Part shown: one piece after another, positions 903-44,593 of the stretch
How positions within the stretch are numbered: the first letter of the stretch is position 1
Layout of the letters: each line of letters begins with the position of its first letter
Assembly (NCBI GenBank): GCA_965208235.1
Contig: OZ242327.1
Location: 780,526 to 844,525 of the forward strand
DNA length: 64,000 nucleotides
Direction: 5' to 3'
Source of the DNA: Phototrophicaceae bacterium
Lineage (GTDB): Bacteria; Chloroflexota; Anaerolineae; Aggregatilineales; Phototrophicaceae
Notes under the pieces: model-generated
The model's input: only the letters and a program-made list of their open reading frames with translations
Told to the model about the DNA's origin: nothing
The model's database searches: none
Translations under genes and position numbers: made by a program

Positions 903-1078
903 GAGAGCCTCCGGTCAATTACTAGATGGACGAAAATACTGTTAAAACTGCACAAAGAGCTAACTTGACAGCGAATTGCTTTTATAGTGGCAATTATAGC
1001 GGTTTTTTCTGATTTTGCAAATATTTTGGCGAATTGATGTAAAATTCCCGTAAATTCCCGGCGGAGCGCGAAGAAACC

Positions 1079-2299: not shown

Positions 2300-2315
2300 G
2301 CGGAGGACTGGCGGA

Positions 2316-8866: not shown

Positions 8867-10471
8867 ATGCGTCGATTATGCACTGCCGCCTTGGCGATTT
8901 GCATCGCATTCAGTCTCGCCGGTTGCGGGGGCGGCGGAACCCGCGTACCCTGCGGTCAAGACAACGGCTGCGTCCGTTATGCCTTGACCGCGGATTTCCC
9001 AATCCTGGATCCGCATATCGCCGAGCTTCCCGAAGCCGGCATGATCTTCCGTCAGATCTATGACACGCTCGTATACCGCGATACCCGTACAAAAGAGTTT
9101 CTGCCCGGCTTGGCGCGATCTTGGGAAACATCGCCGGATGGCCTGGTCTATACGTTTCATTTACGCGACGATGTTCGCTTTCATGACGGTACACCCTTCT
9201 CTGCGGCCTCCGTGGCGGCCAATTTGGACAGGATTGTGGATCCTGCCACTGTGTCCCGCCGCGCTCGGAGCCTGCTTGGTCCCTTTAGCCACTATGAAAT
9301 CCTCGACCCGCGCAGGATTCGTCTGTACTTGCATTCGCCGTTCGCTCCATTGCTTGACAGCTTGGCTCAGCCTTTTCTGGGAATCGCAAGCGAAGCTGCG
9401 CTTGCTTCGTACGATAACTTGCGCTATCAGTTTCATCAGTCCGGTAGCGGGCCCTTCGTCCTGGAAAAGTACTTGCCCGGGGACCGCATCGTGTTGCGGC
9501 GCTTCGACCTCTACGCAACCAAAGCGGGAATCTATTCGTCTTTGAGCGGCGGAGAGGCGCAACGAGTTGAATTCTACATAGTGGAAGGACAAAACGCGAC
9601 TTCGCAACAAGTTTTGAGCGAGGCTTTTGACATCCTCGACGAAGTCCCGCCAAAGACAGCCACGAACCTCGCGGGCAACAGCCGAATCCAGGTATTGCCA
9701 ATTGAGATCCCCGGGCAGACGGTTCAGCTTCTGTTCAACACCAGGCGCGAGCACGTCAATGAGGCTGATGTCAGGAGGGCATTGCTTATCGCTACCAATC
9801 GCGTAGCGATAGCGAACAACATATATGCCAATTACTCGCCTGTGGCCTGGGCGCCCCTATCAATAGCAACAGGATATTCTCACACCGGTTTTGTCAACGA
9901 ACTGGCTTTTGATCTGGGATTTGCTCAAGAAATACTGGAGCAGAGCGGATATCAAGACTTGGATGAGGACGGCATCCTGGATCGTGATGGCCTGCCGCTT
10001 AGACTTTCAATTGTTATTCCGCCGTGGGGACAGTTGCCCGAAGTTGCCGAATTCATTCGGGAACAGTGGCGGCAAATCGGCGTGCAGCTTGAGATCGATT
10101 CTGTACCTGGTTTCGGACGGCTCGCCGAAAAAATCCAGGCGGGTGAAAACGACTTGGTCGCTATTGAAAGTTATGGCCTGGATCCCGCGATTCTGGGCAA
10201 TATTTTCTCTAACCAAGCGATCTACTCGGGTTCTAGAATGGAAGACGAAGCGCTTAACGGTCTGTTGCTGAAGGCGGTGGAAACACTGGATCCGTCTTCT
10301 AGGCGCAGCCAATACTATGAAATCCAAGCATACCTGATGGCAAATGCGCTAATCCTGCCTATCCGTGAGAATGTGCGGTTGCGTCTTGCGAGATCAAACG
10401 TGCGCGACCTGCGTTTCGACGCCTACGGTTTCTATCCGTTATTATTCAACGTGCGGCTGGGCGACAACTGA
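8867..10471 (+). CDS. ABC transporter substrate-binding lipoprotein, family 5 (peptide/nickel/oligosaccharide type)
   Basis: The track ORF starts at 8615, but the ATG at 8867 gives a lipoprotein signal MRRLCTAALAICIAFSLAGC (lipobox LAGC). The body is about 530 aa and typical of SBP_bac_5 (FRQIYDTLVYRD..., DVRFHDGTPF). Confidence 0.8.
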   Translation: MRRLCTAALAICIAFSLAGCGGGGTRVPCGQDNGCVRYALTADFPILDPHIAELPEAGMIFRQIYDTLVYRDTRTKEFLPGLARSWETSPDGLVYTFHLRDDVRFHDGTPFSAASVAANLDRIVDPATVSRRARSLLGPFSHYEILDPRRIRLYLHSPFAPLLDSLAQPFLGIASEAALASYDNLRYQFHQSGSGPFVLEKYLPGDRIVLRRFDLYATKAGIYSSLSGGEAQRVEFYIVEGQNATSQQVLSEAFDILDEVPPKTATNLAGNSRIQVLPIEIPGQTVQLLFNTRREHVNEADVRRALLIATNRVAIANNIYANYSPVAWAPLSIATGYSHTGFVNELAFDLGFAQEILEQSGYQDLDEDGILDRDGLPLRLSIVIPPWGQLPEVAEFIREQWRQIGVQLEIDSVPGFGRLAEKIQAGENDLVAIESYGLDPAILGNIFSNQAIYSGSRMEDEALNGLLLKAVETLDPSSRRSQYYEIQAYLMANALILPIRENVRLRLARSNVRDLRFDAYGFYPLLFNVRLGDN

Positions 10472-10472
10472 T

Positions 10473-11264
10473 TTACGGTCGCAGGGTGATTCTAGTGCCC
10501 GTCCGCTGGTCTCGATCCATCAAGTCTGTCAACACGTTCGGTCTGCGGCCGTTAGCAATGATGACTTCCAGGCTCGGAACCTCAGCAACCAAGTCCACCA
10601 TCTCTTCCACCTTCTGCAACATGCCGCCTGTGACGTCAATACCGGACGAGCCCCCCATGACAGATCTGATCGAATCGAAACTCGATGGTGTGACCGAGGG
10701 GATCACGCGTCCGCGGGCATCCAAAACGCCATCAACTTCGCCTAGCAGAATGATCCGCTTGACCGGGAACGATTTCGCCAGATGCGCAAATAGCCGCTCC
10801 GTTGAAATGATGGCGCCGCCAATTTGGCTGTCAAGCACGACATCGCCATGCACCAGTGGAACAAGGCCGGATTCCAATGCTTGCGCGATCAAGCTCGTTT
10901 GCATTGCGGTGATTTGCCCGTCAGCCGATTTGATGATGGACGATGGCTGAAAGCGCATCGCTGGCAAGCCTTGCTCCAACAATTCGAGCAAAACAAGGTG
11001 GCTTAGCGCCAGAGCCGCCTCAGCCACTTTGGTGAAACCGAGCCACTGTTCCGCTGAGTTTACGCCGGCCGCTGTTTGATGGATTTTCGCCGCAAAATGA
11101 CCAAATGAACCGCTGCCGTGTCCAATGACCAGTCGCAAGCCGGGCTCAGCTTCCCATACTGCCTTTATCTGGCTGGCGATTGTTCTTGCGGCCTCCTGGC
11201 GAAATGCCCGCGCTTTGCCCTTGTCGGTGATGAGCGAGCCGCCAAGCTTGATAAGAGTAGTCAT
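10473..11264 (-). CDS. Isopentenyl phosphate kinase (amino-acid-kinase fold)
   Basis: 263 aa. LIKLGGSLITDK, IGHGSGSFGH, QPSS, LVPLVHGDVV, IISTE, EVDGVL and IDVTGGM match, motif for motif, the archaeal IPK pattern (ILKLGGS, HGGGAFGH, QPSS, VPVIHGD, DVDGV, IDVTGGM). Confidence 0.88.
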   Translation of the reverse strand: MTTLIKLGGSLITDKGKARAFRQEAARTIASQIKAVWEAEPGLRLVIGHGSGSFGHFAAKIHQTAAGVNSAEQWLGFTKVAEAALALSHLVLLELLEQGLPAMRFQPSSIIKSADGQITAMQTSLIAQALESGLVPLVHGDVVLDSQIGGAIISTERLFAHLAKSFPVKRIILLGEVDGVLDARGRVIPSVTPSSFDSIRSVMGGSSGIDVTGGMLQKVEEMVDLVAEVPSLEVIIANGRRPNVLTDLMDRDQRTGTRITLRP

Positions 11265-11277
11265 GAGAAACCAAGTC

Positions 11278-12225
11278 TTAGTTCAATACAAAATCGACGA
11301 CGCTCACGGCGCCCGCCAGACTTAAGGCTCGCCTTACCGCCTGGACGGTTGATCCGTCCACCAAGGCGATCATGTTGCCGCCCATTCCGCCGCCGGAGAG
11401 TTTGGCGCCCATAGCTCCTGCGGCAATGCTGGCGTCAACAAGCTCGTCCAATTCCGGAGACGATATGCCAAGCTGACGAAGCAAACGATGGTTCTCGTTC
11501 ATTAAGGCGCCCAATCGTCCCTGCTCGCCGCACTCAAGCGCGTGTCGCGCATCGCTTACAACTTGGCCAATTCTCAGGAATAGCTCCTCAGTCTCCGATT
11601 GTCGTTCGTCGTAGCGCTGGCGGACGCGGCCAACCGCCTCGCGCGTCATCGCGGCGCGGCCTGTATCAGCGATCACAATGTGGCAGGGACGCTCGACAGT
11701 CAGCAGTTCAAGGTCTTTGCCTCGTTCAAAGTAGACTGGGCGTTCGTATACCACGACAGTATTGTCTATTCCACTCGGCGTACCGTGATGAATCTTCTCC
11801 ATTTCGAACACGAGTTGATTCAGGTCTTCATTCGGGATTCCCCGACCAAACAGCGCCGCCAAAGCGCGTATCGCTGCGGCAGATACGGCTGCGCCACTTC
11901 CCAACCCGCCTGCGAAAGGAATATCCGATCTAATGACCAGGTTGCCGGTCGGTTTCCTGACACCGAAATGGCCAGATGCAATCTGCAGCAACTGTTGCAT
12001 CGGTCGCGCGGAATCATCGGGTAAAGGCGCGTCCATTGCGACGCTCTTTTCGAGCTCGACAGACCGGATGCTGAGCATCGTATCAGAGGGCTGGGCGCAA
12101 GCATAAGCGCGCAAAGACTGTATCGGCGCGGCAATCGCCGGCATTCCATATACAACAGCATGTTCTCCCAAGAGAATGATCTTCGCCGGGGCGCTTGACT
12201 TGAACGGGTGTCTGTTACAAGGCAT
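11278..12225 (-). CDS. mvk: Mevalonate kinase (GHMP kinase)
   Basis: 315 aa with SAPAKIILLGEHAVVYG and the GHMP motif PFAGGLGSGAAVSAAAIRAL. Confidence 0.85.
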   Translation of the reverse strand: MPCNRHPFKSSAPAKIILLGEHAVVYGMPAIAAPIQSLRAYACAQPSDTMLSIRSVELEKSVAMDAPLPDDSARPMQQLLQIASGHFGVRKPTGNLVIRSDIPFAGGLGSGAAVSAAAIRALAALFGRGIPNEDLNQLVFEMEKIHHGTPSGIDNTVVVYERPVYFERGKDLELLTVERPCHIVIADTGRAAMTREAVGRVRQRYDERQSETEELFLRIGQVVSDARHALECGEQGRLGALMNENHRLLRQLGISSPELDELVDASIAAGAMGAKLSGGGMGGNMIALVDGSTVQAVRRALSLAGAVSVVDFVLN

Positions 12226-13096
12226 AGAGAATTATGAAATAGGCAATACCAGCCAACATGACCGTAATCTGGATCGGCCGGTCAGAGAGTAAAATTTCTT
12301 CAGGCGCGCTGGCGGTTTCTTCCACATGCAGCAAGTATAAGTAGCGCAACAAGCCATAAAGCACAAATGGAACCGTAATCAGCCCCCAGTTCGCTCCGTG
12401 CTTGGTCATCGTTTCCACTTCTATCGTATACAGAATATAGGTAATGAGCGTGGAAGTAGTAACGATCCTCAGCATATCGTCCAGCAGGGGAAGATTGTAT
12501 TGCCGGAATGTTAGGCGCGTGTCCTCGGCTTGATCGCCAAGCATAACGAGCTCTTGCCGACGCTTGCCAACCACCAGGAACATCGCGAGCAAGCCGGTAA
12601 AGGCATATAACCAGGGCGAAACTTCGACATCGATGACGACGCCGCCGACCATAACTCGAATGACAAAGCCCGCAGCTACGATGAGTACATCCAGCAAGGC
12701 GATGTGCTTCAGACGAAGCGAATACGCCAGCTGAATAAGCAGATATAAGGCAAGCAGAAGGAATAGCTCGAAGTCCAAGCTATAAGCGAGCCCCAAGCTG
12801 ACAAGGGCGAGTATGACTGACGCCAGCTTCGCGACCGCCGCAGAGAGCGCGCCAGAGGCGATTGGACGATGGCGTTTATTGGGGTGCGCCCGGTCCTGAT
12901 CCCGGTCCATCAGGTCGTTGATGATGTAGACACTGCCCGACGCAAGAACGAGCAATCCAGCGACCGCGATTACCCGAAGCAACAAATCGAATTCCAGCAG
13001 TTTGGCGTCGAAGACAATCGCGGGGAAAACGAAAAGAATGTTTTTTGTCCATTGCTGAGGGCGCATGGATCGGATTAGCGCGCGAACCGTACTCAA
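12215..13096 (-). CDS. UbiA-family prenyltransferase, decaprenyl-phosphate phosphoribosyltransferase (DPPR synthase)-like
   Basis: 293 aa starting at TTG. MRPQQWTKNILFVFPAIVF and YIINDLMDRDQDRAHPNKRHRPIASG (NDxxDxxxD plus the KRxRPxASG signature), with 8-9 TM segments. It overlaps the mvk start by 11 nt. Confidence 0.75.
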   Translation of the reverse strand: MSTVRALIRSMRPQQWTKNILFVFPAIVFDAKLLEFDLLLRVIAVAGLLVLASGSVYIINDLMDRDQDRAHPNKRHRPIASGALSAAVAKLASVILALVSLGLAYSLDFELFLLLALYLLIQLAYSLRLKHIALLDVLIVAAGFVIRVMVGGVVIDVEVSPWLYAFTGLLAMFLVVGKRRQELVMLGDQAEDTRLTFRQYNLPLLDDMLRIVTTSTLITYILYTIEVETMTKHGANWGLITVPFVLYGLLRYLYLLHVEETASAPEEILLSDRPIQITVMLAGIAYFIILYAL

Positions 13097-13205
13097 GCTG
13101 TGCCTCGCTGTGCTTAGACAGTAGACAGGTTTATTAGTTTAGTGTTATCGTCCAGCTTTGCCAGATGCATTTGCCACAGCACAGCTTGGTCCGCGAATTG
13201 GAATT

Positions 13206-23820: not shown

Positions 23821-24432
23821 TTAGGACAGATTGACCAAAGAAACCTGGGCGGAAGTACGCTCTTGCAGATCCACGGAAAAAGCCGCCAAATCATCGGTGG
23901 CGAATCTCGCTATAATCAGAACCTGTGCCGCAAATTCTTCCTCCTGGATTTCTCCACGGTAGGATGCGATTAGCCTTTTGACGATGTTGTAAAGCGAATA
24001 GGGCATCTCGAGACCAATCACTCGCTTCTCGACTTTCAGTTCCGTTTTCAGGATTGACAGCGCTGCTTGCGCCGACTCGGTATAGGCGCGCACCAATCCG
24101 CCAGTCCCCAGCTTGGTACCGCCAAAGTAGCGCGCCGTCACCAAGGCGATGTCCCCGACCCCCGAACCGCGGAGCACCGCCAGTGTAGGCGGGCCGGAGG
24201 TGCCCGTCGGTTCGCCATCGTCGCTCATGCCTTCCGTCACCGACTTCCCGAAGCCGACGCGAAAAGCGTAAACATGGTGGTTCGCATCCGGCATTTCCTC
24301 GCGCAGGCGGGCGATGACAGCACGCGACTCCGGCACGGAAGCCGCCAGTAGCGCGGTGGAAATAAATCGCGATTTTTTGATGACGATTTCTGTTCGAACC
24401 TGCGCGGCCGGGATCAAGTAGCTGGAGGGCAT
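23821..24432 (-). CDS. yigZ: YigZ/IMPACT-family (UPF0029) protein
   Basis: IKKSRFISTALLAASV...ANHHVYAFRVG...DGEPTGTSGPP...VTARYFGGTKLGTGGLVRAY is the family signature. Confidence 0.8.
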   Translation of the reverse strand: MPSSYLIPAAQVRTEIVIKKSRFISTALLAASVPESRAVIARLREEMPDANHHVYAFRVGFGKSVTEGMSDDGEPTGTSGPPTLAVLRGSGVGDIALVTARYFGGTKLGTGGLVRAYTESAQAALSILKTELKVEKRVIGLEMPYSLYNIVKRLIASYRGEIQEEEFAAQVLIIARFATDDLAAFSVDLQERTSAQVSLVNLS

Positions 24433-24554
24433 CCGCGATTGTCTTTCGTTGTCGATTTAGGATCTCCAGGTGTATCGGACTGATGGATCGGAACTGCGAC
24501 GCATATTTAACTCTTTATACATCTGTTTCTATAGGGTTATTTCACTATAGTCGT

Positions 24555-27500
24555 TTACACGTATTCAGTCACTTCGAGAGCGATCCTAAACTCATCAATG
24601 TGATTGGCAGTGAATGTGACAAGTAATGATTTTCCACAAAGCTCCACAGAGATATCGTGCCCTTGACCTTCTTCCGATGATCTAATCTGGTCGAGAATGT
24701 CCAAATCTGGCGTGCTTCGTTCACCATGCTTCCATTGAGCCGCATGATGGGCGCACAGGCATACTGCGTTTCTCGGATGATCCAACCACTGCGCGCTTGT
24801 GCGCGGGATGATGTGAACGGCCTCAAAATATGGCGAACCGTCCCTTTTGAGGAATGAATGTCCACAGCCATGAATCTGGCAACCTCCGGGATACTTTTCT
24901 TTCAGAAACTTTCGTGTCTCGGGGTTTTTAGGTTTCCAGCTTCTTTTGATTCTTAATTCATATCGGTCTTCTGGATCGGGTTCGTTGCCGATTTCGAGCT
25001 CGGCTTTGACCCGCTTGTCCTCGAAAGTATCCTCAAAATGGTCGTAATCCGGTGGTCTAGGGATTGGCGGCGACCCACTCCGGTTAAAGCCGCTCCCAAG
25101 TTCGGACGAGTATTCGTCGGGCTCCAATGTCTGGACGGTTTCTCGCTCCTTTTCTTTCTTTTCGTCATATAACCGAAGCGCCTCTGCGATCGCTTCGGGT
25201 GAACGCCCGTCAATTAGTTCAAGCTTTCGTCGTTCGCTGCTGGGAGTGTCGTCGCGCTCAAGCAGATCCTGGATGCTTTTATTTGCTGTGCGCATGCCAA
25301 GCGCATTCGCTAGCTTATCGTCTTTGTAAAGATCGTCTGGTAAGTCTTCTAGCGAAAGCTCCGATGGCTTTACGAAGTTCCCATTACAGTCCGGCAACCA
25401 GGCTTTTTCGCGGACGAGTTTCCCCACGATTGAGACTTGCTCATTAATCTCTGTGAATCCATCAAAATACTGTCTTGTAGAAGACTCGACCTCACCTGAA
25501 ATGCAATTTTTGTTCGGCAATAGCAGCTCATTCCAAATGAATTTAGACCGTTCAATGGTGGGACGCCTCAATGCAAACTCAAGTCCGTCAATTTTGAAGT
25601 CGGGATCAAATCCATTCAATCCGCGCTTATGTGGATTAGAAAGACTTCCATAATGCGGTCTGCAAATCGTTACATGTCCGAAGTAGCTTGCTTGTTGTAG
25701 CCATTGCCTCACATCTTTGGAGATATCTAGTTGCTCAAGATGTCGAACACTGACATACGGATCATAACACTCAGAAATAAACCAAGCGTCAGGATTTCCT
25801 TCAAAATACATTTCCAGTTGCGAATTGCGGATATATAAATTATCGCCCGGTTTGCGAAAAGCGGAGTCACCCACCGCGTTTTTCGCCCAAAGAAACGGGG
25901 TTTTTGTCAATAAGTCTATTAGCTTTGTCTGCCGCTGTTGCGAGTCGTCGCCTAGCGCTTTTACAATTAACTTGATGTCTTCCCAATGTTCAGCGTCATC
26001 GATTTCTACTGATGCCGTGTATTTCGGAAGGAGAAAATCAATAACTTCGTCAGTTATATCTGGTTTCTTAAGCCCAAGATTCTTGAGGAACCCGAGCGAT
26101 TTATCGCTGTCGCAGACTTCGCGCTTGACTGTTGGAAAGCGACTTTCGTGTTCTGAAGGCAAGTAAGCTTGGGGATCGTCGCCATGCAACGGCTTGACAT
26201 GCTTGCCATCTACCAGACGGATAATGGACTTTTGCTTCAATATGTTGAATGGACTGGAAGAGAAATATGATCGGCTGTCAAATGTGGAGGCGTATTCATA
26301 GAAGTCGCGAATCCAGTCGTCGGATTGACGGGATAAAAAATCTTCATCAATTCTTCTTGCGAGTTTTTCTGGATCAAGTTCCTCAATTTCGACCTTATCC
26401 CTGAGATATGTCCAAAGCTCTTGAGTTCGCTGTGCTGTTGTTATTTCAGCAGATACCCACCGAGATGCCTCCTTTGAATCGAGAATCCGTGGCAATTGCT
26501 CGTCATCCAGTAGTTTGCGTAACGCTTCGCTTCCCCCTAAGACTGCCTCTTGTCCTGACACGTAATGACCGTCGTATGCAGGTATAAGTGGTTCTTCCTT
26601 TATGGCTGCTAGAAATCTGTCATAAATGGGGGTGAAAATAGTTTCAACATATCTGTAAGACTTATAGTCGCGGAATTTGTCGTATTCTAGCGGCATCGTA
26701 TTCAATATATTGACGGTTAGCCAATCCCGATCGCGCAGCCACCGCAGCGCCTCCACGACCAGTTCACCGGTTTCTTCGACTAGCGAGATGTTGAAGCCTT
26801 TATTGTCCTTCGGGATATCGTCACGAGCGGAATTCGTCATGTAGGGACCCTGCACCAAAAAACCCAGATGAGTTTCCCGCTCAGTAGGAAAAAATACATT
26901 AACGCATGATTGCGACAATTTGATGATATTGGGCCGGCCATTCTGCTCATATTCCGAAACCAGAAAGGCAATCTGTACTGTGAGGCTAGAATTATCTGCA
27001 AACTGGTGATTATCACCTACCGGATGAGCAATGTTCCTCTCGAAGACCAGCCACTTCTCTTCGGTTTGCTCACCAGAACGTTCGTCGATTACCGCAACCT
27101 GCTTGATGAAATCCAGTTCAAGGAAATCAGCTCTTTGCCTGAGGTAAGTTCCACTGTTGCCATCTTCAATTCTGTACGAGACTTCGTCGATATTTCTTAG
27201 GAATAACAATGTACGAGCGCCCAGGTCTTGCAGCCCTTCGGCAATCACGTGATGCGATTCTTCTCCAGATTTGTTCGCATGATTGAAAGGAAAGACAAAT
27301 AGCGTTCGCGTTGTAATTGAACGCGCACCTGTCGAGCGTGGTTGCACGTAATTGTCGATGGCGAAGTGTTCATCTTCCGAATGAATTTCTGGCGACGACG
27401 TATGGGCATATACAGACTTAAAGCCGATTCCAAACTTCCCTATCTTGTTGATATCGTCTCGCTTCGTGCCGATTACGAGTCCGCAAATGCCTCGAACATC

Positions 27501-27725
27501 GGCTTCGTTGAAAGGGCGCCCGTCGTGTTCGAGTTCAAGGCGATCAGGGTAAAGTCTGAATTGCACTTGAGTCGCCTCAGCATCTTCAGCATTCTGAAGC
27601 AACTCAAAGATGAAGTGGGTCTGATCGCTGTATAGATTCTCTAGCAATACAGGTCCATATTGGCCAATATCAGTACCATATTTCTTAATGTTTTCTTGAC
27701 GAATCAAACAGTAGTCTATGGACAT
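24555..27725 (-). CDS. Large GHKL-ATPase (sacsin/MORC-like N-terminal module) - HNH nuclease fusion protein; candidate stand-alone nucleic-acid-targeting/defence protein
   Basis: 1,056 codons from ATG 27725, with GAAGGA 6 nt upstream. The track ORF starts at TTG 27746. N-terminus: FIFELLQNAEDAEA, LEHDGRPF, IGKFGIGFKSVY (Bergerat-fold N/G1/G2 boxes). C-terminus: GGCQIHGCGHSF...YFEAVHIIP...HPRNAVCLCAHHAAQW (HNH). The coding sequence is much more AT-rich than its neighbours. Confidence 0.75.
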   Translation of the reverse strand: MSIDYCLIRQENIKKYGTDIGQYGPVLLENLYSDQTHFIFELLQNAEDAEATQVQFRLYPDRLELEHDGRPFNEADVRGICGLVIGTKRDDINKIGKFGIGFKSVYAHTSSPEIHSEDEHFAIDNYVQPRSTGARSITTRTLFVFPFNHANKSGEESHHVIAEGLQDLGARTLLFLRNIDEVSYRIEDGNSGTYLRQRADFLELDFIKQVAVIDERSGEQTEEKWLVFERNIAHPVGDNHQFADNSSLTVQIAFLVSEYEQNGRPNIIKLSQSCVNVFFPTERETHLGFLVQGPYMTNSARDDIPKDNKGFNISLVEETGELVVEALRWLRDRDWLTVNILNTMPLEYDKFRDYKSYRYVETIFTPIYDRFLAAIKEEPLIPAYDGHYVSGQEAVLGGSEALRKLLDDEQLPRILDSKEASRWVSAEITTAQRTQELWTYLRDKVEIEELDPEKLARRIDEDFLSRQSDDWIRDFYEYASTFDSRSYFSSSPFNILKQKSIIRLVDGKHVKPLHGDDPQAYLPSEHESRFPTVKREVCDSDKSLGFLKNLGLKKPDITDEVIDFLLPKYTASVEIDDAEHWEDIKLIVKALGDDSQQRQTKLIDLLTKTPFLWAKNAVGDSAFRKPGDNLYIRNSQLEMYFEGNPDAWFISECYDPYVSVRHLEQLDISKDVRQWLQQASYFGHVTICRPHYGSLSNPHKRGLNGFDPDFKIDGLEFALRRPTIERSKFIWNELLLPNKNCISGEVESSTRQYFDGFTEINEQVSIVGKLVREKAWLPDCNGNFVKPSELSLEDLPDDLYKDDKLANALGMRTANKSIQDLLERDDTPSSERRKLELIDGRSPEAIAEALRLYDEKKEKERETVQTLEPDEYSSELGSGFNRSGSPPIPRPPDYDHFEDTFEDKRVKAELEIGNEPDPEDRYELRIKRSWKPKNPETRKFLKEKYPGGCQIHGCGHSFLKRDGSPYFEAVHIIPRTSAQWLDHPRNAVCLCAHHAAQWKHGERSTPDLDILDQIRSSEEGQGHDISVELCGKSLLVTFTANHIDEFRIALEVTEYV

Positions 27726-27795
27726 GGCGAATCCTTCTAAACTCAAAGTCGATTTTACAAAACGAAAAACTGCAGCGAGGGGAATGGCGAATAAG

Positions 27796-27868
27796 ATGCC
27801 CCATAGGAGACTCGAACTCCTGTTTTGGCCTTGAGAGGGCCACGTCCTAGGCCACTAGACGAATGGGG
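27796..27868 (-). tRNA. tRNA-Glu (anticodon CUC)
   Basis: Minus-strand read: GCCCCAT TC GTCT AGTGGCCTA GGAC G TGGCC CTCTCAA GGCCA AAAC AGGAG TTCGAGT CTCCT ATGGGGC A. This is a full 73-nt cloverleaf with anticodon loop CT-CTC-AA. CCA is not encoded. Confidence 0.92.
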
Positions 27869-27904
27869 CTTGAGTGACGATTCTAAACCAGCCTGCGGAC
27901 ATGG

Positions 27905-28924
27905 TCAAGACGGCGCCAGGAATCCCATGCGATCCTGCGCCAGCTTCAACGTCGGTTCGGCGACGGCGCTGGCCTTCTCCCGCCCCAGCTTCAGCACGGA
28001 ATCCAGATAACCCGCCTCGTCCATGAGTTCATTGTAGCGCGCTTGCAAGGGTTCGAGCGTTGACACAACAGCCTCCGCGACAACCTTCTTCAAGTCGCCA
28101 TAGCCCTTGTCGGCAAATCTTTCTTCGATCGCTTCGCGCGATTCGTCGCTGATCGCCTGATATATGGTCAGCAAATTATTGACGCCGGCGCGTTCCGGTT
28201 CGTCGCTGAAGCGTATGTCGCGATAAGAATCAGTCACCGCGCGCATGATCTTCTTGCGGGCGCGGGACAAATCATCGAGCAGAAAGACGGCATGATTTTC
28301 CGAGTCTTCGCTCTTGGACATTTTGGCTCGCGGGTTGTCCAAGCCCATGATGCGGGCGCCGGCTTGCGGATTCATCACCGAGGGCAAGGTGAAAGTCTCG
28401 CCATAGAGATGGTTAAAGCGCTGCGCCAGATCGCGCGTGAATTCCAGATGCTGATTTTGATCATCGCCCACCGGCACCAGATCGGCGTGATAAAGCAGAA
28501 TATCCGCGGCCATCAGCGAAGGATAATTGAGCAGCCCGGCGCCAATCGACTCTTGATTCTGCTTCCCCGCCTTGTCCTTGAACTGCGTCATACGCTGCAG
28601 CCATCCCAGGGGCGCTATGCAGGTCAACATCCAGGCCAATTCGGAGTGCGCGGGTATATGTGACTGTACGAAGATCGTAGAGACTTCCGGATCGATCCCG
28701 GCCGCAATGTACATCGCCGCGCTTTCACGGGTTTTCTGCCGCAGTTCGAGGGGATCCTGCCCAGCGGTTATGGCGTGGAGATCCACCACGCAGTAAAAGC
28801 AGTCATAGTCCCGCTGCACTTGCACCCATTGCTTTAAAGCGCCAAGGTAGTTGCCGATGGTCAAGTTGCCGGATGGCTGAATCCCGGACAATACGCGGGG
28901 CTTGTTGATATTGGTATTTGCCAT
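27905..28924 (-). CDS. trpS: Tryptophan--tRNA ligase
   Basis: The ATG at 28924 gives MANTNINKPRVLSGIQPSGNLTIGNYLGALKQWV. KMSKSE motif present. The track ORF extends to 28993. Confidence 0.95.
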   Translation of the reverse strand: MANTNINKPRVLSGIQPSGNLTIGNYLGALKQWVQVQRDYDCFYCVVDLHAITAGQDPLELRQKTRESAAMYIAAGIDPEVSTIFVQSHIPAHSELAWMLTCIAPLGWLQRMTQFKDKAGKQNQESIGAGLLNYPSLMAADILLYHADLVPVGDDQNQHLEFTRDLAQRFNHLYGETFTLPSVMNPQAGARIMGLDNPRAKMSKSEDSENHAVFLLDDLSRARKKIMRAVTDSYRDIRFSDEPERAGVNNLLTIYQAISDESREAIEERFADKGYGDLKKVVAEAVVSTLEPLQARYNELMDEAGYLDSVLKLGREKASAVAEPTLKLAQDRMGFLAPS

Positions 28925-29005
28925 AGTGTAGTCTAGTCTCTGGACAGCTCTCTCGAGTGCGGCGATTCTAACATCCCCCAAGACGCCATTCAACCGTCGT
29001 GTAAC

Positions 29006-30901: not shown

Positions 30902-31004
30902 GCAAGCGTCCTTAGTCGAGAGCCAGATTCTCCACAGGAAGTTTACATCTGCTTCATATTGAGCGCAACAAAAAAGCTCGCCAACGGCGGCAAGCCATTT
31001 GAGA

Positions 31005-31086
31005 TGCCCTGAAGAGGACTCGAACCTCCACCCCGTTAAGGACACGGCCCTCAACCGTGCGCGTCTGCCAGTTCCGCCATCAGGGC
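31005..31086 (-). tRNA. tRNA-Leu (anticodon GAG)
   Basis: Minus-strand read: GCCCTGA TG GCGGAACTGGCAGACGC G CACGG TTGAGGG CCGTG TCCTTAACGGGGTG GAGG.TTCGAGT.CCTCT TCAGGGC A. It has a long variable arm (class II) and anticodon loop TT-GAG-GG. Confidence 0.9.
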
Positions 31087-31239
31087 AAGCTGTAGCGAAT
31101 AGTATATGGTTTTCGCCCTTAATGTCAATCCTCTGCATAGTTCCCCCATTATCCTTAATCGAATCTTGAGCAAGCCCCCTTCCTGTCCTATTATTAGCAC
31201 TTGTCGAATTTGGCTGATTCCAAAGAAAGTCTTGGATAC

Positions 31240-38625: not shown

Positions 38626-40218
38626 TTGATCCGCTCTTGCTCGTTGGCCTTCATCTTGCTTGTCCTGGTCTCGTGTCGAGCGCCAGTTGAAGAAGTAACG
38701 GTGAACGTTTCCTTGCTTGCTGATGGCAAAACGCAGACCTTTACTTACGCTTCTCGGGTATCTGTCGAAGAGCTGCTGGCGAACGCCAAAATCGTTCTGG
38801 GTGAACTGGATCGAGTCAGTCATCCTCTAAACCTGCAACTCGCGGACGGAATGCATGTCACCGTGCGCCGAGTGCGGGAAGAGCAAGCCTGCCAGCGCGA
38901 AAGCCTGCCCTTCCAGCGTCAGCGGATTCCATACGAGGGCATCGCCCCCGGGCAAGAAAGATTGAGCCAGGTCGGGAGGACCGGCCTGCAGGAAGCCTGC
39001 TACCGCGTCCTTGTTGAAGACGATGTCGAGTCCAGCCGGAGCCTGATTGGGCAAGCGACTATCCTCACCGAACCACGGGACGAAATCGTGCTTGTAGGTC
39101 CCTCGCGTTCGGTCGAACCGTTCGCGCTTGCGGGAAGGCTAAGCTACATTAACAACGGGACTGCCTGGAGCATTCATGGCAACACCGTGAATAAGAGCGC
39201 CTTGCGCAATAGCGAGAATCTGGACTCGTTGGTATTTGCTGCCAGCCCTGACGGATCGGTTCTGCTTTACACCGTGGCGAGCAGCGCAACAGACAAGTTT
39301 TTTAACGAACTCTGGATGGTATCCCTTGATGACGACGACGAGCCCGTCAAGTTAGCGCCAACCGACGTCCTCTTTGCGGAATGGCGGCCAAGATCCAGCA
39401 ATACAATTGCCTATTCGACCGGCGAACGAGGCCAGGGACGGGCGCCGTGGAAATCTCTTAACAACTTATGGCTTATGCAGATCGACCGTCAAACGGGTCG
39501 TACGCTTTCCATCCAGGAGATCATTGGGGAAGATGCAGGAGGACCATTTGGATGGTGGGGGACCAACTTTGCCTGGGCGCCGCGCGGGGACAAGCTCGCC
39601 TGGGTCAAAGCCGACAGTGTGGGAGTGGTTGAGATTGAAGGCAAACAAGTTCATACTTTGCTTGAATATCCGGAGTTTAACACCTCCGGATCTTGGGTCT
39701 GGCTCTCGCAGGTGTCTTGGTCCCCCGGCGGGGACTTTATTTCCGCCACAGCGCATGGCGGCCCGCTGGCCAGCGAACCCGCCACGACCAGTCCGGTATT
39801 TGATCTCGCGATTCTTGACGCCAATGGCGGATTTAAGGCGACAATGAGACGGGCTGTCGGGATGTGGGCGGCTTCGAATTTTTCACCGCGCATTGACTTG
39901 CCGGGCGCCGAAGGCTCTGAAGGCTATCTGGCCTGGTTGCAGGCGCGCGAACCCTACAATAGCATCTACAGCGAGTACGACCTCGTTGTCGCGGATCGCG
40001 ACGGCAGCAACCAGAAAGTAATCTTTCCCGACGCCGATCAACCCGGCATTCGCAAAAGCGACTTCGGTCTGACCGCCACCGACATGAGCTGGAGTCCGGA
40101 TTCGCGTCACATCGCTGTCGTATACCTGGGGGACATTTGGTTGGTCGACATAGAATCAGGCGAAAGCCGCCAGATAAGTTTTGACGGTGGCGCAAGCAAC
40201 CCGATTTGGACGCGATAA
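38626..40218 (+). CDS. Lipoprotein with DUF348-like and G5 domains followed by a PD40/TolB-like beta-propeller
   Basis: TTG start. Signal MIRSCSLAFILLVLVSC. G5-like ESLPFQRQRIPYEGIAPGQERLSQVGRTGLQEACYRVLVEDDVE...EIVLVG. PD40-like repeats (AWAPRGDKLAWV, SWSPGGDFISAT, SWSPDSRHIAVVY). Confidence 0.6.
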   Translation: MIRSCSLAFILLVLVSCRAPVEEVTVNVSLLADGKTQTFTYASRVSVEELLANAKIVLGELDRVSHPLNLQLADGMHVTVRRVREEQACQRESLPFQRQRIPYEGIAPGQERLSQVGRTGLQEACYRVLVEDDVESSRSLIGQATILTEPRDEIVLVGPSRSVEPFALAGRLSYINNGTAWSIHGNTVNKSALRNSENLDSLVFAASPDGSVLLYTVASSATDKFFNELWMVSLDDDDEPVKLAPTDVLFAEWRPRSSNTIAYSTGERGQGRAPWKSLNNLWLMQIDRQTGRTLSIQEIIGEDAGGPFGWWGTNFAWAPRGDKLAWVKADSVGVVEIEGKQVHTLLEYPEFNTSGSWVWLSQVSWSPGGDFISATAHGGPLASEPATTSPVFDLAILDANGGFKATMRRAVGMWAASNFSPRIDLPGAEGSEGYLAWLQAREPYNSIYSEYDLVVADRDGSNQKVIFPDADQPGIRKSDFGLTATDMSWSPDSRHIAVVYLGDIWLVDIESGESRQISFDGGASNPIWTR

Positions 40219-43200
40219 TGCGACAGTTGATACTGGTCCTTATCAGTTTGCTGCTGCTTTCGGGCAGCTTGATAGCCACACTCGGCACCATTCATTTTCG
40301 GGATTTCGAGTTGCGCGGCTATGTTGATCCAACGGTGGATCAGAATCTCCCCTTCCTGACGCCTCGGCCTGGCGTAAATGTTGACTTGCGTCAGTATGAG
40401 CTTGACAGCCTGCACGCAAATCTCGCCCTTATCAGCGAAACGGGTTTTGTATGGCTGCGACAATTCGTCTATTGGGATGAAATTGAGCCTAGCAAAGACC
40501 AGTACGATTGGGCGCAGTGGGACGAGATCTTTACTGTTCTGCGCGAGTACCCGCGTTTGGAACCTGTAGTCGTGCTCATGCACTCCCCCCAATGGGCGCG
40601 CGTATCGCCGCCGGGGATAGAGGCGACGGAGACGGCGCCGCCCCAGTCCCTTGATGACTTCGCGCGCTTTGCGGGCCGCTTCGCGCGGCGCTATGGCGAA
40701 TCAGTAAATTATTATCAGATTTGGGACGAGCCGAATCTCGATGACGCTTGGGGATCGCTTCAGCCCAGGCCAGCTGATTATCTGGCTCTGCTCGCCGCTG
40801 GCGGGGGGGCAATCCGCGCCGAGGACCCAAGCGCAAAGATTATCGCAGCGGCTTTGGCCCCGACCACCGAGGCTGGCGGCCAGAATATCAGCGACCTGCT
40901 TTATCTTGACGCGATGTATCAACTTGGCGGGGCGGAGCTGATGGACATCGTGGCTGGAAAGCCTTACGGATTCTCAACATCTCCATTGGATCGTCGCGTT
41001 GATGACAGCATCCTGAACTTTTCCCGGATTGTTGCCCTGCGCGAAGTGATGCTGGCGCATAATGATGGCCGCAAGCCGCTTTGGGCGAGCCATTGGGGCT
41101 GGAACGCATTGCCCGGCGAATGGGCCGGCGCCCCATCCATTTGGGGAAGCGTTACTCCGAACGAGCAGATCATGTATACGCTACAAGCATTCGACCGCGC
41201 CCACCGCGAGTTTCCCTGGCTAGGCGCCATGTTCTTGCACCATTGGCAGCCCAATGCAGAAAACGCCAGCGCCCAGTGGGGCTTCGCGCTGATTGGACCG
41301 GACGATCAGCCGTCACCACTGTTGCATGCAGTGCAGAATTATGATTTTCCCGTGCTGGCGCAGAACGGCCTATTTCATGCGCGCACAGAGCATGCCCGTT
41401 ACAGCGGCGTCTGGCAATTCAGCGAGTTAGGAGCGGACATCGGCTGGCTGGAAACGAGCGACAGTCAGCTCGAATTCGACTTCTACGGTACCGATCTCGC
41501 CATGCTCTTGCGGGAGGATGACTATATAGCCTTCCTGTATCCGACTGTCGACGGCAGCCCAGCAAATGCGACAGCCCATGACTCGGATGGGAACAGCTAT
41601 ATCTTTCTCCGAAGCGACACGCACGGTCCGGAACAGAATCTGGTTCCGGTAGCGCGCGACTTGCCCCTGGGTCAACATACGCTGCGCGCTGTGGCGGATC
41701 GCGGATGGGATCGTTGGGCGGTCGCCGGATACGCCGTCAGTTCAGGCAATTTATCATTCGCCTTCGATCGGCAGATTGCGCTCGGCGCTTTCGCGACGCT
41801 CTTGTCGCTGTTCATCGTATTGTTGACCTTTGCGACCTCGCCATGGCGCCGCTGGATTCCTCCTGTCGGGCTGGTGTTTGCCGGTCTGTCCGCGGCGGCG
41901 CACCTGGCGATTAGCAGCGTCGCGTCCTTGGCACTGCTCTTTGCCATGATCTGGACATGGACAAGTCACAGACCTGCCCTGTTCGTCCGCGACGAGATCA
42001 ATATCCTGATCGCTCTGGCAACTGGCGGCGTCCTTTACCTGTCGCCTTCGTTTTTCTTGACCATTGTTTCGGGGCTGGTTCTATTCGTACTGATCTTCCA
42101 TCGTCTGGAAACGGGCTTGATCTTGACCTTGTTCTGGGCGCCCTTCTTCCTAAGTCCAGTCGAGTTGTACCGGTTTGCTTTTCCAATGGCGGAAATCCTG
42201 ATACTGATCACCTCAATCGCAGCAATCTTTCGATTCTTCGTCTGGCTAGGCGAGCAGTATCAAATGGCAAACAGCAGCTATCCGTTAAAACTTCAGTCGC
42301 TATTTTCGCAGATAAAGTTTATTGACATCGGGGTGGCCGGGATCGCGCTTGTCGCCATCCTATCGCTCAGCTGGGCGCGCCATACCGATGCAGCGGCGAC
42401 AGAACTGCGCACGCTCGTTCTGGAGCCATTGCTCTTCTATGTGATATTCAGAGCCCTGCGTCCATCCAAGCGAACTGTTTTGCATTGCGTCTACGGGCTT
42501 GTCCTTGCTTCCATATTGGTCTGCGTCATCGGACTGTTAAGATACATTTTGGGAAACGATGTCATAGTCGCGGAAGAGGGCGCGCGTCGTCTCATTTCGG
42601 TCTATGGCTCTCCCAACAACGTTGGCCTTTTGCTTGGCCGGTCGCTGCCTTTCGCGCTGGCGCTGCTGCTGGTCGGGCATAGCGCGCGCATGCGTTTAAG
42701 CTGGGCAGCGGCGCTGGTCATCATGGGCATAACCGCGCTCTTGACGCAGAGTGTGGGCGCGATACTTCTCGGAATCCCCATGGGAATTGCCGTAGCGCTG
42801 ATCGGTTACGCTCAACGAAGGGCATTCGTCCCGATCTTGGGCATCGGCGCTGCGCTAGCGGCTGGATTGGCTGTGTTGACGCAGGTTTCGGCGCGTTTTG
42901 CCAATATACTTGACTTCACAAGCGGCACCAGTTTTCTCCGCCTGCGGCTATGGGAAAGCGCCATCGAAATCATTCGCAATCATCCTGTTTTCGGTATCGG
43001 ATTGGATCAGTTCCTATATTATTACAGCGGAGAATATGTTCGGCCGGACGCGATCTGGGATCTGAACCTGTCGCACCCGCACAATTTTTTACTGGATTTT
43101 TGGACGCGCCTGGGTATTGCCGGGCTGATTATCTTTCTGCTCTTGCAGTTTGCATTTTGGCGATACGCCCTTGTCGCCCTGGGCAGACTGAGAAACAAAG

Positions 43201-43409
43201 ACAGAGACGGTTTCGCGATCATGCTGGGTCTGATGGGAAGCATGGCCGCGCTATTGGGTCATGGCTTAATTGACAACAGCGTCTTTGTGATCGACTTGGC
43301 CTTCATATTCATGTTCCAGTTGGCTGCAACCATGCGGCTACGTGAACTGGCGCCAGCTATAGAATCCGTTTCCGATTCCGATCACGAGCGAAGCCAAGTC
43401 ATGCCTTAA
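40218..43409 (+). CDS. Fusion protein: N-terminal clan-A glycoside-hydrolase-like (beta/alpha)8 domain plus C-terminal polytopic O-antigen-ligase/Wzy-like domain
   Basis: The ATG at 40218 overlaps the upstream TAA (TAATG). The track ORF starts at TTG 40206. N-half: YWDEIEP...YYQIWDEPNLDDAWG. C-half: at least 10 TM segments with GSPNNVGLLLGRSLPF and LSHPHNFLLDFWTRLGIAGLI (ligase-family H-N motif). Confidence 0.6.
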   Translation: MRQLILVLISLLLLSGSLIATLGTIHFRDFELRGYVDPTVDQNLPFLTPRPGVNVDLRQYELDSLHANLALISETGFVWLRQFVYWDEIEPSKDQYDWAQWDEIFTVLREYPRLEPVVVLMHSPQWARVSPPGIEATETAPPQSLDDFARFAGRFARRYGESVNYYQIWDEPNLDDAWGSLQPRPADYLALLAAGGGAIRAEDPSAKIIAAALAPTTEAGGQNISDLLYLDAMYQLGGAELMDIVAGKPYGFSTSPLDRRVDDSILNFSRIVALREVMLAHNDGRKPLWASHWGWNALPGEWAGAPSIWGSVTPNEQIMYTLQAFDRAHREFPWLGAMFLHHWQPNAENASAQWGFALIGPDDQPSPLLHAVQNYDFPVLAQNGLFHARTEHARYSGVWQFSELGADIGWLETSDSQLEFDFYGTDLAMLLREDDYIAFLYPTVDGSPANATAHDSDGNSYIFLRSDTHGPEQNLVPVARDLPLGQHTLRAVADRGWDRWAVAGYAVSSGNLSFAFDRQIALGAFATLLSLFIVLLTFATSPWRRWIPPVGLVFAGLSAAAHLAISSVASLALLFAMIWTWTSHRPALFVRDEINILIALATGGVLYLSPSFFLTIVSGLVLFVLIFHRLETGLILTLFWAPFFLSPVELYRFAFPMAEILILITSIAAIFRFFVWLGEQYQMANSSYPLKLQSLFSQIKFIDIGVAGIALVAILSLSWARHTDAAATELRTLVLEPLLFYVIFRALRPSKRTVLHCVYGLVLASILVCVIGLLRYILGNDVIVAEEGARRLISVYGSPNNVGLLLGRSLPFALALLLVGHSARMRLSWAAALVIMGITALLTQSVGAILLGIPMGIAVALIGYAQRRAFVPILGIGAALAAGLAVLTQVSARFANILDFTSGTSFLRLRLWESAIEIIRNHPVFGIGLDQFLYYYSGEYVRPDAIWDLNLSHPHNFLLDFWTRLGIAGLIIFLLLQFAFWRYALVALGRLRNKDRDGFAIMLGLMGSMAALLGHGLIDNSVFVIDLAFIFMFQLAATMRLRELAPAIESVSDSDHERSQVMP

Positions 43410-43602: not shown

Positions 43603-44592
43603 GTGGTACACTTTGCTCAGCCAATCAAATCGAGGTATCAAGACTTGCGTGTACTGATAACAGGCGGCGCCGGGTTCATAGGATCGCATTTGTGCGATCG
43701 ATTCTTGGGCGATGGTCATCGTGTGGTAGCGGTTGACAATCTCATCACGGGCACCCAGGACAACATCTCGCACCTGGCTGGCAATCGTCATTTCGAATTT
43801 GTGTATCACGATGTCAGCAACTTCATCCACCTTCCCGGTCAGATCGACGCCGTTTTGCATTTTGCCTCCCCTGCCAGCCCGATTGACTATCTCAAGTATC
43901 CGATACAGACCTTGAAAGTCGGCGCGCTGGGCACGCACAACGCGCTAGGTTTGGCCCGGGCGAAGCGCGCGCGCTTTTTGCTCGCGTCTACATCTGAGGT
44001 CTACGGCGATCCTCAGGTGCATCCACAGAGTGAGGACTATGCTGGCAATGTTGACCCGGTTGGTCCGCGTGGCGTATACGACGAAGCAAAACGTTATGCG
44101 GAAGCGCTGGTGATGGCTTATCATCGTCAACACGGTATGGACACCCGCATCGTACGCATATTCAACACCTACGGGCCGCGAATGCGCCTTGACGATGGGC
44201 GGGTCGTACCCAATTTTGTTGGCCAGGCGATCCGCGGCGAGGCGCTGACGGTCTATGGCGACGGCAGTCAAACGCGATGCTTTCAATACATTGACGACCT
44301 GGTGGAGGGCGTTGTGCGTTTGCTTGGCAGCGATTTCGTCGAGCCAGTCAATATCGGCACGACTCGCGAAGTGAGCATCCTTGATTTTGCGAATGTAGTC
44401 AATCGCGTCTCGGCCAACCCTGCTGGCATTGTCTTTGACGACAGACTTCGGATTGATGGCGATCCTCAGACGCGCAAACCGGATGCGAGCCGCGCGCATA
44501 ATCTGCTCGATTGGCGGCCGCAGGTGGCGCTGGAAGACGGCCTCGCGCGCACAATCGCCTATTTTCGTCAAGTTATCGCCGCCACCTCTTGA
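43603..44592 (+). CDS. UDP-glucuronate decarboxylase (UDP-xylose synthase), SDR family
   Basis: [18 protein letters not shown] (Rossmann), ASTSEVYG and [12 protein letters not shown] (YxxxK). The start is uncertain: GTG 43603 (maximal ORF), or TTG 43645 (MRVLITGG...) with GAGG 8 nt upstream. Confidence 0.85.
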
Positions 44593-44593
44593 G

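Follow-up and report, generated by a model that had tools for sequence, protein, structure and literature searches.

The window analysed here, a stretch of 64,000 nucleotides from contig OZ242327.1 of a Phototrophicaceae bacterium (Chloroflexota), carries on its minus strand an intact, stop-free open reading frame (ORF) of 1,056 amino acids (aa; 24555–27725), whose product joins a sacsin-type GHKL ATPase to a C-terminal HNH-like zinc module. A first-pass annotation, made by a model from the letters alone, had described it as a stand-alone GHKL ATPase/HNH nuclease fusion and a candidate defence-like system. The way this gene entered its chromosomal slot, the nature of its two parts and its relation to the Tiamat family are considered below.

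The gene and its slot beside tRNA-Glu

The program-made ORF list places the start of the gene at TTG 27746. ATG 27725, which the first-pass annotation had also chosen, is preferred: across 101 aligned homologues Met1 and the 'MxSDY' N-terminus hardly vary. The GAAGGA motif 6 nt upstream of it (27737–27732) was confirmed in the sequence. The 100% identical protein at NCBI is entered as 'MAG: hypothetical protein OXT68_06060 [Chloroflexota bacterium]' (database entry P0001), and homologues are already in the databases by the thousands under generic names. A promoter and terminator scan of positions 24300–28000 gave counts no higher than those of shuffled controls.

The gene is flanked by the genes for tRNA-Glu and tryptophanyl-tRNA synthetase (TrpRS) on one side and by that for YigZ/UPF0029 (23821–24432) on the other (Table 1). 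SmpB, TPR, SH3b and LysM-M23 proteins, an Fe-S assembly protein, PlsX and KAS are encoded further away. No methyltransferase or other partner gene adjoins it at this locus, and the insert described below holds one gene, as the first-pass annotation had observed of the partners; the tRNA-Glu gene at 27797–27869 had escaped it. A tblastn search with three of the SNF2 helicases that accompany relatives of the gene found no such helicase in the 64-kb window. The 1,067-aa ORF at 40206–43409 was considered as an SNF2 helicase and rejected, its product being a Wzy_C O-antigen-ligase-like membrane protein.

Three related Chloroflexota genomes, L001, L002 and L008 (Aggregatilineales metagenome-assembled genome, MAG), have homologues 53%–58% identical to the gene in this slot. 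The order SmpB-TrpRS-tRNA-Glu-[gene]-YigZ is common to six related genomes, and tRNA-Glu lies directly upstream of the gene or of the slot in L001, L002, L008 and L088–L093. TrpRS, SmpB and PlsX are 76%–86% identical between the syntenic genomes, compared with the 53%–58% of the gene. Its GC content is 46.5% (47.5% at third codon positions, GC3), versus 53%–58% (GC3 57%–70%) in its neighbours, and the syntenic homologues have an equal deficit of 10–15 points.

A position beside trpS and smpB that is kept in six genomes would suit a lineage-specific housekeeping factor, inherited vertically and acting in MutL/MORC-like repair or chromosome maintenance, the more so as the divergence of the gene falls within the range of its faster neighbours (42%–51% identity for the TPR protein). 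However, when four more genomes of the lineage (L090–L093, TrpRS 83%–89% identical) were examined with TrpRS as the anchor, the slot lacked the gene in three of the four, and the genome closest in TrpRS (89%) is among these three. The L090 slot is empty, with tRNA-Glu followed after 320 nt by YigZ; L091 has YjbQ and PhyH in this place, L092 has PhyH, and in L093 a split copy of the gene accompanies SH3/fn3 and PhyH. Homology between the window and L090 stops at the 3' end of tRNA-Glu (27797) and resumes at 24534, 21 nt past the stop codon; a 3,262-bp single-gene insert stands in the window where L090 has 209 nt. On account of the empty sites in sister genomes, descent as a vertically inherited housekeeping gene was rejected. 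The persistently low GC content, the exchange of the tail between genomes and the location of relatives on plasmids and in restriction-modification (RM), toxin-antitoxin and DISARM contexts speak against it as well, and no synteny was found beyond the lineage of the gene. We regard the housekeeping factor as largely refuted and most improbable. The first-pass annotation had counted a conserved housekeeping neighbourhood as a sign against its own proposal; such a neighbourhood is present superficially, but the empty sites overturn its meaning.

The tRNA-Glu/YigZ interval is variable in this lineage and is either empty or filled with GHKL-HNH, GHKL-NOV_C, PhyH, YjbQ or SH3/fn3 genes. The gene under study is a horizontally acquired accessory gene in a variable hotspot 3' of tRNA-Glu(CTC) in a Chloroflexota (Aggregatilineales-like) lineage, and its role is probably anti-phage. 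The clean single-gene indel with its sharp boundaries might also be the mark of a selfish mobile gene, the HNH domain of which would promote its own homing-like spread into the tRNA-Glu-proximal site with no host defence involved. Neither an integrase nor att-like direct repeats were found around the insert, where repeats of 12–25 nt occur at chance level only, and HNH domains are common in homing endonucleases. Yet its length of 3.2 kb and its large ATPase set the gene apart from every homing endonuclease, and the sister genes with a NOV_C tail sit in the same slot without an HNH domain. Moreover, the slot also takes unrelated cargo (PhyH, YjbQ, SH3/fn3), as would be expected of a recombination hotspot rather than a site of specific homing. 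The selfish gene is given very little credence on these grounds.

The ATPase core, the C-terminal module and kinship with Tiamat

The N-terminal domain contains the strings FIFELLQNAEDAEA (F38–A51), LEHDGRPF and IGKFGIGFKSVY (I95–Y106), which provide the N-box (E41/N45/D48), the G1 motif (D68-G69) and the G2 motif (G96-x2-G99-x-G101). E41, N45, D48, G69, G96, G99 and R301 are invariant in the 101-sequence alignment, and G101 is conserved in at least 90%. The first-pass annotation had read these strings at the same residues, and the profile matches place them far beyond chance: Pfam SACS at 2.6e-18 (67.2 bits against a cutoff of 32.8), NCBIfam P_loop_sacsin ('sacsin N-terminal ATP-binding-like domain') at 8.8e-27 (93.4 bits against a cutoff of 50) and the PADLOC model of TmtA at 2.1e-69. 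Pfam HATPase_c_3 remained sub-threshold on the protein (16.4 bits against 25). The full-length AlphaFold2 (AF2) model (mean pLDDT 86.6, pTM 0.61) retrieved in Foldseek Hsp90/TRAP1/HtpG over 540–745 columns, with E-values down to 6e-10, followed by the ATPase regions of PMS1/MLH1 (MutL-type) and GyrB. A profile of the family run against the PDB matched the sacsin SRR crystal structures 5v44–5v47 at ~1e-16, and Hsp90s too. The middle region (residues ~301–810), modelled mostly with pLDDT >85, holds an Hsp90-middle-like part, and R301, W471, Y476, Y569, F706, W731 and W776 are invariant in it. Motifs, hidden Markov models and Foldseek agree on the sacsin-type ATPase proposed at first reading; the N-terminal domain can be placed securely among the GHKL ATPases, and there in the sacsin/Hsp90 clade. 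Hydrolysis of ATP by the protein is inferred, given that the motifs are intact and R301 does not vary.

The core of the protein is related to TmtA, the protein of Tiamat. All nine PADLOC TmtA models were matched, the best one (PDLC03972, 232.8 bits) at residues 26–792, and the other eight only partly, all within the N-terminal ~640 positions of their profiles; the tail of the protein lies outside the reach of every one of the nine. Every family subtype examined gave a similarly partial TmtA match (167–252 bits), so the family has the ~800-aa core of Tiamat in common with it, but not the C-terminal part. PADLOC-DB and DefenseFinder represent Tiamat (TmtA) as an anti-phage system of one gene, credited to Millman et al. 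2022; the name 'Tiamat' was not found in the text of the Millman preprint. It is counted among the single-gene PD-(D/E)XK systems, and as a validated single-gene system (bioRxiv 10.1101/2024.10.26.620412).

Like Tiamat, the window gene encodes one large protein with a homologous sacsin-type GHKL ATPase, a homologous middle of ~500 aa and a C-terminal effector of nuclease type, and is an accessory gene of patchy distribution. It differs in its tail, which is a McrA/TagI-type Zn-HNH module whereas that of Tiamat is described as PD-(D/E)xK-type, and in its kin, since most members of its subfamily are paired with an SNF2 helicase and Tiamat has no such partner. The earlier statement that the architecture is not among the named defence systems holds for the tail but not for the core. 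Judged by its sequence, the gene is probably a C-terminal-module variant within the Tiamat/sacsin-GHKL defence family, and it does not represent a new category of system. The literature searches turned up no account of Tiamat relatives with an HNH tail, nor of an SNF2-sacsin-GHKL cassette.

Residues ~900–1056 are common to 100 of the 120 best database homologues. According to column counts, Y945, C949, Q950, C954, F967, E968, D982, N986, C989, C991, G1001 and H1042 are invariant or nearly so; among the cysteines, C949 and C954 are conserved in 100%, C991 in 99% and C989 in 96%, while either H or C occupies position 994. Residues 900–1056 were also modelled on their own with AF2 (pLDDT 83, pTM 0.71), and the model contains a beta-hairpin (968–971/987–990) and then a helix (992–1000), that is, a predicted beta-beta-alpha fold with putative structural Zn ligands. 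The sole confident Foldseek matches of this model, with weak E-values (about 1e-2 and above), were HNH nucleases: EcoKMcrA (24%–25% identity, prob 1.00), ScoMcrA (rmsd 2.7–2.8 A, 70 columns) and CBASS Cap5. The sequence profile of the tail run against the PDB matched the HNH domain of EcoKMcrA at 3.8e-7 and TagI at 4.3e-5. Additionally, several close homologues have a precomputed PF13391 match. In the profile alignment C949/C954 fall on the first CxxC of McrA/TagI and C991/H994 on the second Zn pair, 'YFEAVH971IIP' aligns to McrA 'YLEVHHVIP' with H971 as the second His of McrA 'HH', and N986 aligns to the motif Asn (McrA 'DN').

The tail is an HNH-fold, McrA/TagI-related zinc domain. The structure prediction and Foldseek search that had been suggested yielded Hsp90/MutL/GyrB for the core and HNH nucleases for the tail, and the proposed HNH fusion is upheld by Foldseek and by the profile match to EcoKMcrA/TagI, though Pfam HNH_2 stayed sub-threshold. 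The C-terminal string G947...W998 had been read with the correct letters, but its spacers are x7 (SF...YF) and x8 (IIP...HPRN), not x9 and x10. EcoKMcrA, TagI and ScoMcrA, which are type IV, modification-dependent enzymes, share with the tail an HNH module homologous by sequence and fold and the CxxC...H...N...C(x)C arrangement, and they work without a cognate methyltransferase. Unlike the window protein, they pair their HNH module with a modification-reader domain, have no GHKL ATPase and keep the canonical last His in place of A995.

Table 1. Features of the gene and its insertion site (window coordinates)
Feature	Position	Strand	Basis
CDS, sacsin-type GHKL ATPase with HNH-like module, 1,056 aa and stop	24555..27725	-	translation; database entry P0001 100% identical
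GAAGGA Shine-Dalgarno-like motif	27732..27737	-	6 nt upstream of ATG 27725; read from sequence
Bergerat-fold ATP-binding domain, residues ~26-300	26826..27650	-	Pfam SACS, NCBIfam P_loop_sacsin, invariant motifs, PDB sacsin SRR and Hsp90s, Foldseek
Middle region common with Tiamat TmtA, residues ~301-810	25296..26825	-	PADLOC TmtA match to residue 792; AF2; Foldseek
Low-confidence linker, residues ~811-900; junction of C-terminal module exchange in sister genes	25026..25295	-	pLDDT 45-68; identity to NOV_C-tailed sisters collapses after ~residue 830
Zn-finger HNH-like (McrA/TagI-type) module, residues 901-1056	24558..25025	-	column counts, AF2, Foldseek, profile vs PDB
tRNA-Glu(CTC), 3' end = left boundary of insert	27797..27869	-	ARAGORN; comparison with related genomes
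Single-gene insert, 3,262 bp: 71-nt leader, CDS, 20-nt tail	24535..27796	-	pairwise alignment of window vs L090
Right flank common with empty site, begins CTATAGAAACAGATGTATAAAGAGTTAAATA, runs into YigZ/UPF0029 gene	24407..24534	-	alignment to L090

Tail exchange, gene fission and SNF2 pairing

Two sister genomes, L088 and L089 (TrpRS 79%–82% identical), carry in the same tRNA-Glu/YigZ slot genes whose core is 48%–51% identical to the window gene over residues 1–~830. Beyond ~residue 830 the similarity collapses, and the tail is Pfam NOV_C/DUF3883 (PF13020, 3e-18). These sisters (e.g., P0033 and P0048) resemble the window gene in slot, low GC content, solo state and homologous core, but differ in having a PD-(D/E)xK-type NOV_C tail instead of HNH. 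The junction of the swap coincides with the linker modelled at low confidence (pLDDT 45–68). The NOV_C tail also matches the C-terminus of HmaA, the NOV_C domain of which (PD-(D/E)xK superfamily) was found by experiment to be a nickase and to be needed for anti-T4 defence (PMC11232893). Hma, in which HmaA is an SNF2-NOV_C protein, is like the sisters in this tail; membership of Hma was rejected, as the window protein did not match HmaC and HmaA lay near the gene only in L004, two genes off and on the opposite strand. The exchange in situ of two unrelated nuclease folds is the strongest comparative argument for a C-terminal nuclease effector.

Split forms of the gene were found in L093 (11529–12137 and 12134–14638) and L008 (~10001–10625 and 10606–13161), and belong, with the proteins P0011, P0013, P0023, P0024 and P0043, to a subclade of close homologues in which the split is conserved. 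In this form a ~200-aa ORF with the ATP-binding lobe is followed by a ~850-aa ORF that starts with M-[EA]-F-[AV]-K-R at window residues ~204–209. A pseudogene reading of L008 and L093 was rejected: the split near residue 200 recurs, the Met start is conserved, and the two ORFs of L093 overlap by ATGA. The split subclade reflects recurrent gene fission rather than random frameshift, and the window gene is the fused form.

Searches with the C-terminal module revealed 4,566 cluster representatives at E <= 1e-3, 1,308 at <= 1e-10 and 293 at <= 1e-30, the clusters being defined at 50% identity. The module is always C-terminal, typically in proteins of 1,030–1,090 aa. In one-genome-per-species data relatives 33%–38% identical are scattered over >12 phyla, archaea included, with representatives in Chloroflexota, Cyanobacteria, Actinomycetota, Nitrospirota, Desulfobacterota, Latescibacterota, Planctomycetota, Binatia, Kiritimatiellia, Margulisiibacteriota, Proteobacteria and Bathyarchaeia; 21 plasmid records carry relatives too. 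Relatives adjoin DrmD-like SNF2 helicases, PemK toxins, RM genes and DISARM genes, and on Rhizobium and Methanomethylovorans plasmids a helicase-GHKL pair sits amid RM, toxin-antitoxin and nuclease genes.

Clustering of 1,429 ORFs from 88 loci identified one conserved partner, an SNF2 helicase of ~1,020–1,040 aa that matches the PADLOC DrmD model PDLC02623 over its full length (1.5e-129). No other conserved partner emerged from these ORFs; minor neighbours were a PemK toxin, in 4 loci, and a RecD-like helicase, in 5. In 42 of the 43 helicase-linked loci the SNF2 gene immediately precedes the GHKL gene in the same orientation, and in 28 the gap is <=35 nt or the two genes overlap. Grouped by the residue at position 971 of the tail, linkage is 20/21 for E, 4/4 for Q, 3/3 for R and 8/10 for Y. 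The window gene's clade is a solo, His-type minority form of the family; the term 'stand-alone' of the first-pass annotation is correct for this locus but describes a minority state.

With such regular pairing, which extends to plasmid copies, the window gene could be the orphaned half of a two-gene system, either dependent on a DrmD-like SNF2 protein encoded elsewhere or a decaying remnant without autonomous activity. Against this, at least five diverged genomes (53%–58% identity) keep the solo ORF intact or cleanly split, with its full set of ATPase and Zn/HNH residues, and its persistence in these genomes argues for selection without a linked helicase. The NOV_C-tailed sisters in the same slot are solo as well, the literature treats Tiamat as a validated system of one gene, and the insert holds this gene alone. 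We consider an orphaned half unlikely. Somewhat less doubtful, though still a tentative proposal, is that GHKL-HNH proteins and their dedicated DrmD-like SNF2 helicases constitute a widespread two-gene defence system without a name, from which the window gene would descend as a derived, helicase-independent lineage. If so, the retained His and Asn would make the window protein a self-sufficient ATP-gated nuclease.

DISARM class 1 is similar in that the helicase of distant relatives matches the DrmD model and that DrmA/DrmB follow the GHKL gene in two Nostocales loci. It differs in that the window has no helicase, DrmA/B/C or methylase, and that DrmA/B are lacking in 41 of the 43 SNF2-linked loci; with DrmA and DrmB present in two Nostocales loci only, DISARM membership of the family was rejected. 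In these two loci, L006 (1537–10685, Nostoc sp.) and L023, the GHKL gene stands between a DrmD-like SNF2 gene and genes for a DrmA-like protein (341 aa) and DrmB (2e-181), roughly where DISARM class 1 has its methylase, and a GmrSD_N gene and a DNA methylase fragment lie nearby. They may be DISARM hybrids or decayed DISARM loci.

Several further variants of the family were recorded. In L007 (13161–13556), L013, L015 and L016 a PemK/MazF-type toxin gene lies directly downstream of the GHKL gene or slightly overlaps it, and the PemK/MazF genes of four SNF2-linked loci from different phyla are 74%–82% identical to each other. An actinomycete subgroup (L027, L032–L087; many Actinomycetes/Streptosporangiaceae MAGs) of ~820–900 aa has the TmtA-like core and no nuclease tail, and an SNF2 helicase adjoins it in only 3 of 42 cases. 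Relatives of 1,500–1,700 aa (P0157, P0181, P0188, P0223, P0228, P0249 and P0251) have the same module at the C-terminal end; their length implies additional domains at the N-terminus or inside the protein, possibly by fusion. Positions 689–3793 of MT835838.1, an unannotated 16.8-kb 'Bacteriophage sp.' contig from human faeces, encode a full-length relative (24.6% identity at 99% coverage); either the copy is carried by a phage or a bacterial contig was mis-binned.

Weighing the defence reading and a candidate mechanism

On balance we favour, with some reserve, the view that the window gene is a horizontally acquired accessory gene of defence type, a relative of TmtA that combines a GHKL core with a McrA/TagI-type HNH module. 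A number of observations weigh against it. The best TmtA match covers positions 32–806 of a 1302-position profile (~59%), which indicates relatedness and not membership, and the mechanism of Tiamat itself is given as unknown in two reviews of 2025–26. The evidence from defence contexts is anecdotal and does not amount to a statistical enrichment, and most relatives have an SNF2 partner that is lacking here, so the solo gene might be incomplete. In the tail, the single sequence scored 19.9 bits with Pfam HNH_2, below the gathering cutoff of 21; the canonical last metal-binding His (McrA 'C-H', TagI 'D-H') falls on A995; and, of the 100 closest homologues, 22 have His and 77 Tyr at position 971, which in 46 loci from diverse phyla is H in 8, Y in 10, E in 21, Q in 4 and R in 3. 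Given A995 and the variable position 971, catalysis might be weak, unconventional or absent. Finally, no modification-reader domain of the SRA, PUA, EVE or McrA N-terminal type was detected in residues 300–900 with Pfam, NCBIfam or PDB profiles, and the PADLOC model mREase_IV matched at only 0.0033, over the HNH part.

The same tail residues could be read as those of a non-catalytic Zn-finger serving DNA binding or dimerisation. Foreign DNA would in that case be clamped or compacted in a MORC-like, ATP-driven manner, so that its replication or transcription is blocked while the DNA stays uncut. Family-wide, only the Cys ligands, Q950, F967 and H1042 are invariant, and E- and Q-type relatives have lost N986 and C989 in addition to the changes at position 971 and the missing last His, a position that is C, S, A or V in the family. 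The active site is therefore not canonical and not conserved throughout the family. However, the window gene's clade retains H971, D982, N986 and a His at 994, the closest relatives in structure and sequence are active nucleases, and at the orthologous slot the module is replaced by another nuclease domain, NOV_C, as expected of an interchangeable nuclease effector. A non-catalytic tail thus seems rather improbable. With His and Asn intact, nuclease activity is plausible for the window gene's clade, and H993, H994 and H1000, which lie near A995, could substitute for the missing metal ligand. The phrase 'ATP-gated nuclease', used at first reading, is consequently a plausible but not a secure description, in view of position 971 and A995.

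In the defence reading that we favour, ATP binding would dimerise the N-terminal domains into a clamp on DNA, by analogy with MutL, MORC and Hsp90. The clamp cycle would then position or license the flexibly tethered HNH module, which might nick or cut the bound DNA. Self DNA would be spared by the logic of type IV systems, in that the host chromosome lacks the target feature, for which a modified base or backbone and a replication or packaging structure of foreign DNA are candidates. Absence of the target is the most likely basis of discrimination, because there is no methyltransferase and the HNH module is of the modification-dependent type IV kind. The first-pass annotation had called the sparing of self DNA unexplained; a McrA/TagI-type HNH needs no methylase and offers a candidate answer. 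This step is the weakest of the scheme, because of the missing reader domain.

MutL has a comparable layout, in which a flexible linker ties the GHKL ATPase at the N-terminus to a metal-dependent endonuclease at the C-terminus, and the N-terminal domains of PMS1/MLH1 were retrieved by Foldseek. Its endonuclease domain is not HNH, though, the relation is limited to the GHKL fold, and there is no mismatch-repair context at this locus. GHKL MORCs have been described in RM-like operons with an SWI2/SNF2 helicase and an HNH or EcoRII-like/REase-fold nuclease (Iyer, Abhiman and Aravind 2008; PMC2292703), and sacsin is not mentioned in that paper. MORC/paraMORC systems share with the present family the combination of GHKL ATPase, SNF2 helicases and HNH/REase-fold nucleases in restriction-like systems, but they belong to another GHKL clade, as the window gene best matches sacsin SRR and Hsp90 and not MORC/MutL, and the nuclease, usually a separate gene in their operons, is fused to the ATPase in the window gene. 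Should the proposed activity be confirmed, the MutL/MORC logic of an ATP-driven clamp licensing a nuclease would be extended to a third, sacsin-like GHKL clade in prokaryotic immunity.

The sister genomes provide a natural experiment, in which an ATPase core of ~800 aa occupies one chromosomal slot with either an HNH or a NOV_C/PD-(D/E)xK tail. The presence of the same core with either tail singles out the C-terminus as an exchangeable effector of nuclease type and assigns the part of sensor or motor to the GHKL core. If this holds true, the HNH-to-NOV_C swaps at a single tRNA-Glu hotspot would open a route into the mechanism of Tiamat. The variation of the 'catalytic' residue (H, Y, E, Q or R) across the family yields mutational hypotheses and, together with the tail swap and the SNF2 pairing, gives this locus its value as a source of comparative clues to that mechanism.

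A few minor observations concern the rest of the window. tRNA-Glu(CTC) and tRNA-Leu(GAG) (31003–31087) flank the TrpRS-SmpB block. The TrpRS ORF (27905–28993) is listed with 362 aa from TTG, but TrpRS has 339 aa in all close homologues, and the true start is probably ~23 codons downstream of the listed TTG. The ORFs at 40206–43409 (1,067 aa) and 44429–46054 (541 aa) each encode a Wzy_C O-antigen-ligase domain, preceded in the larger protein by an N-terminal region of ~830 aa without a Pfam match.

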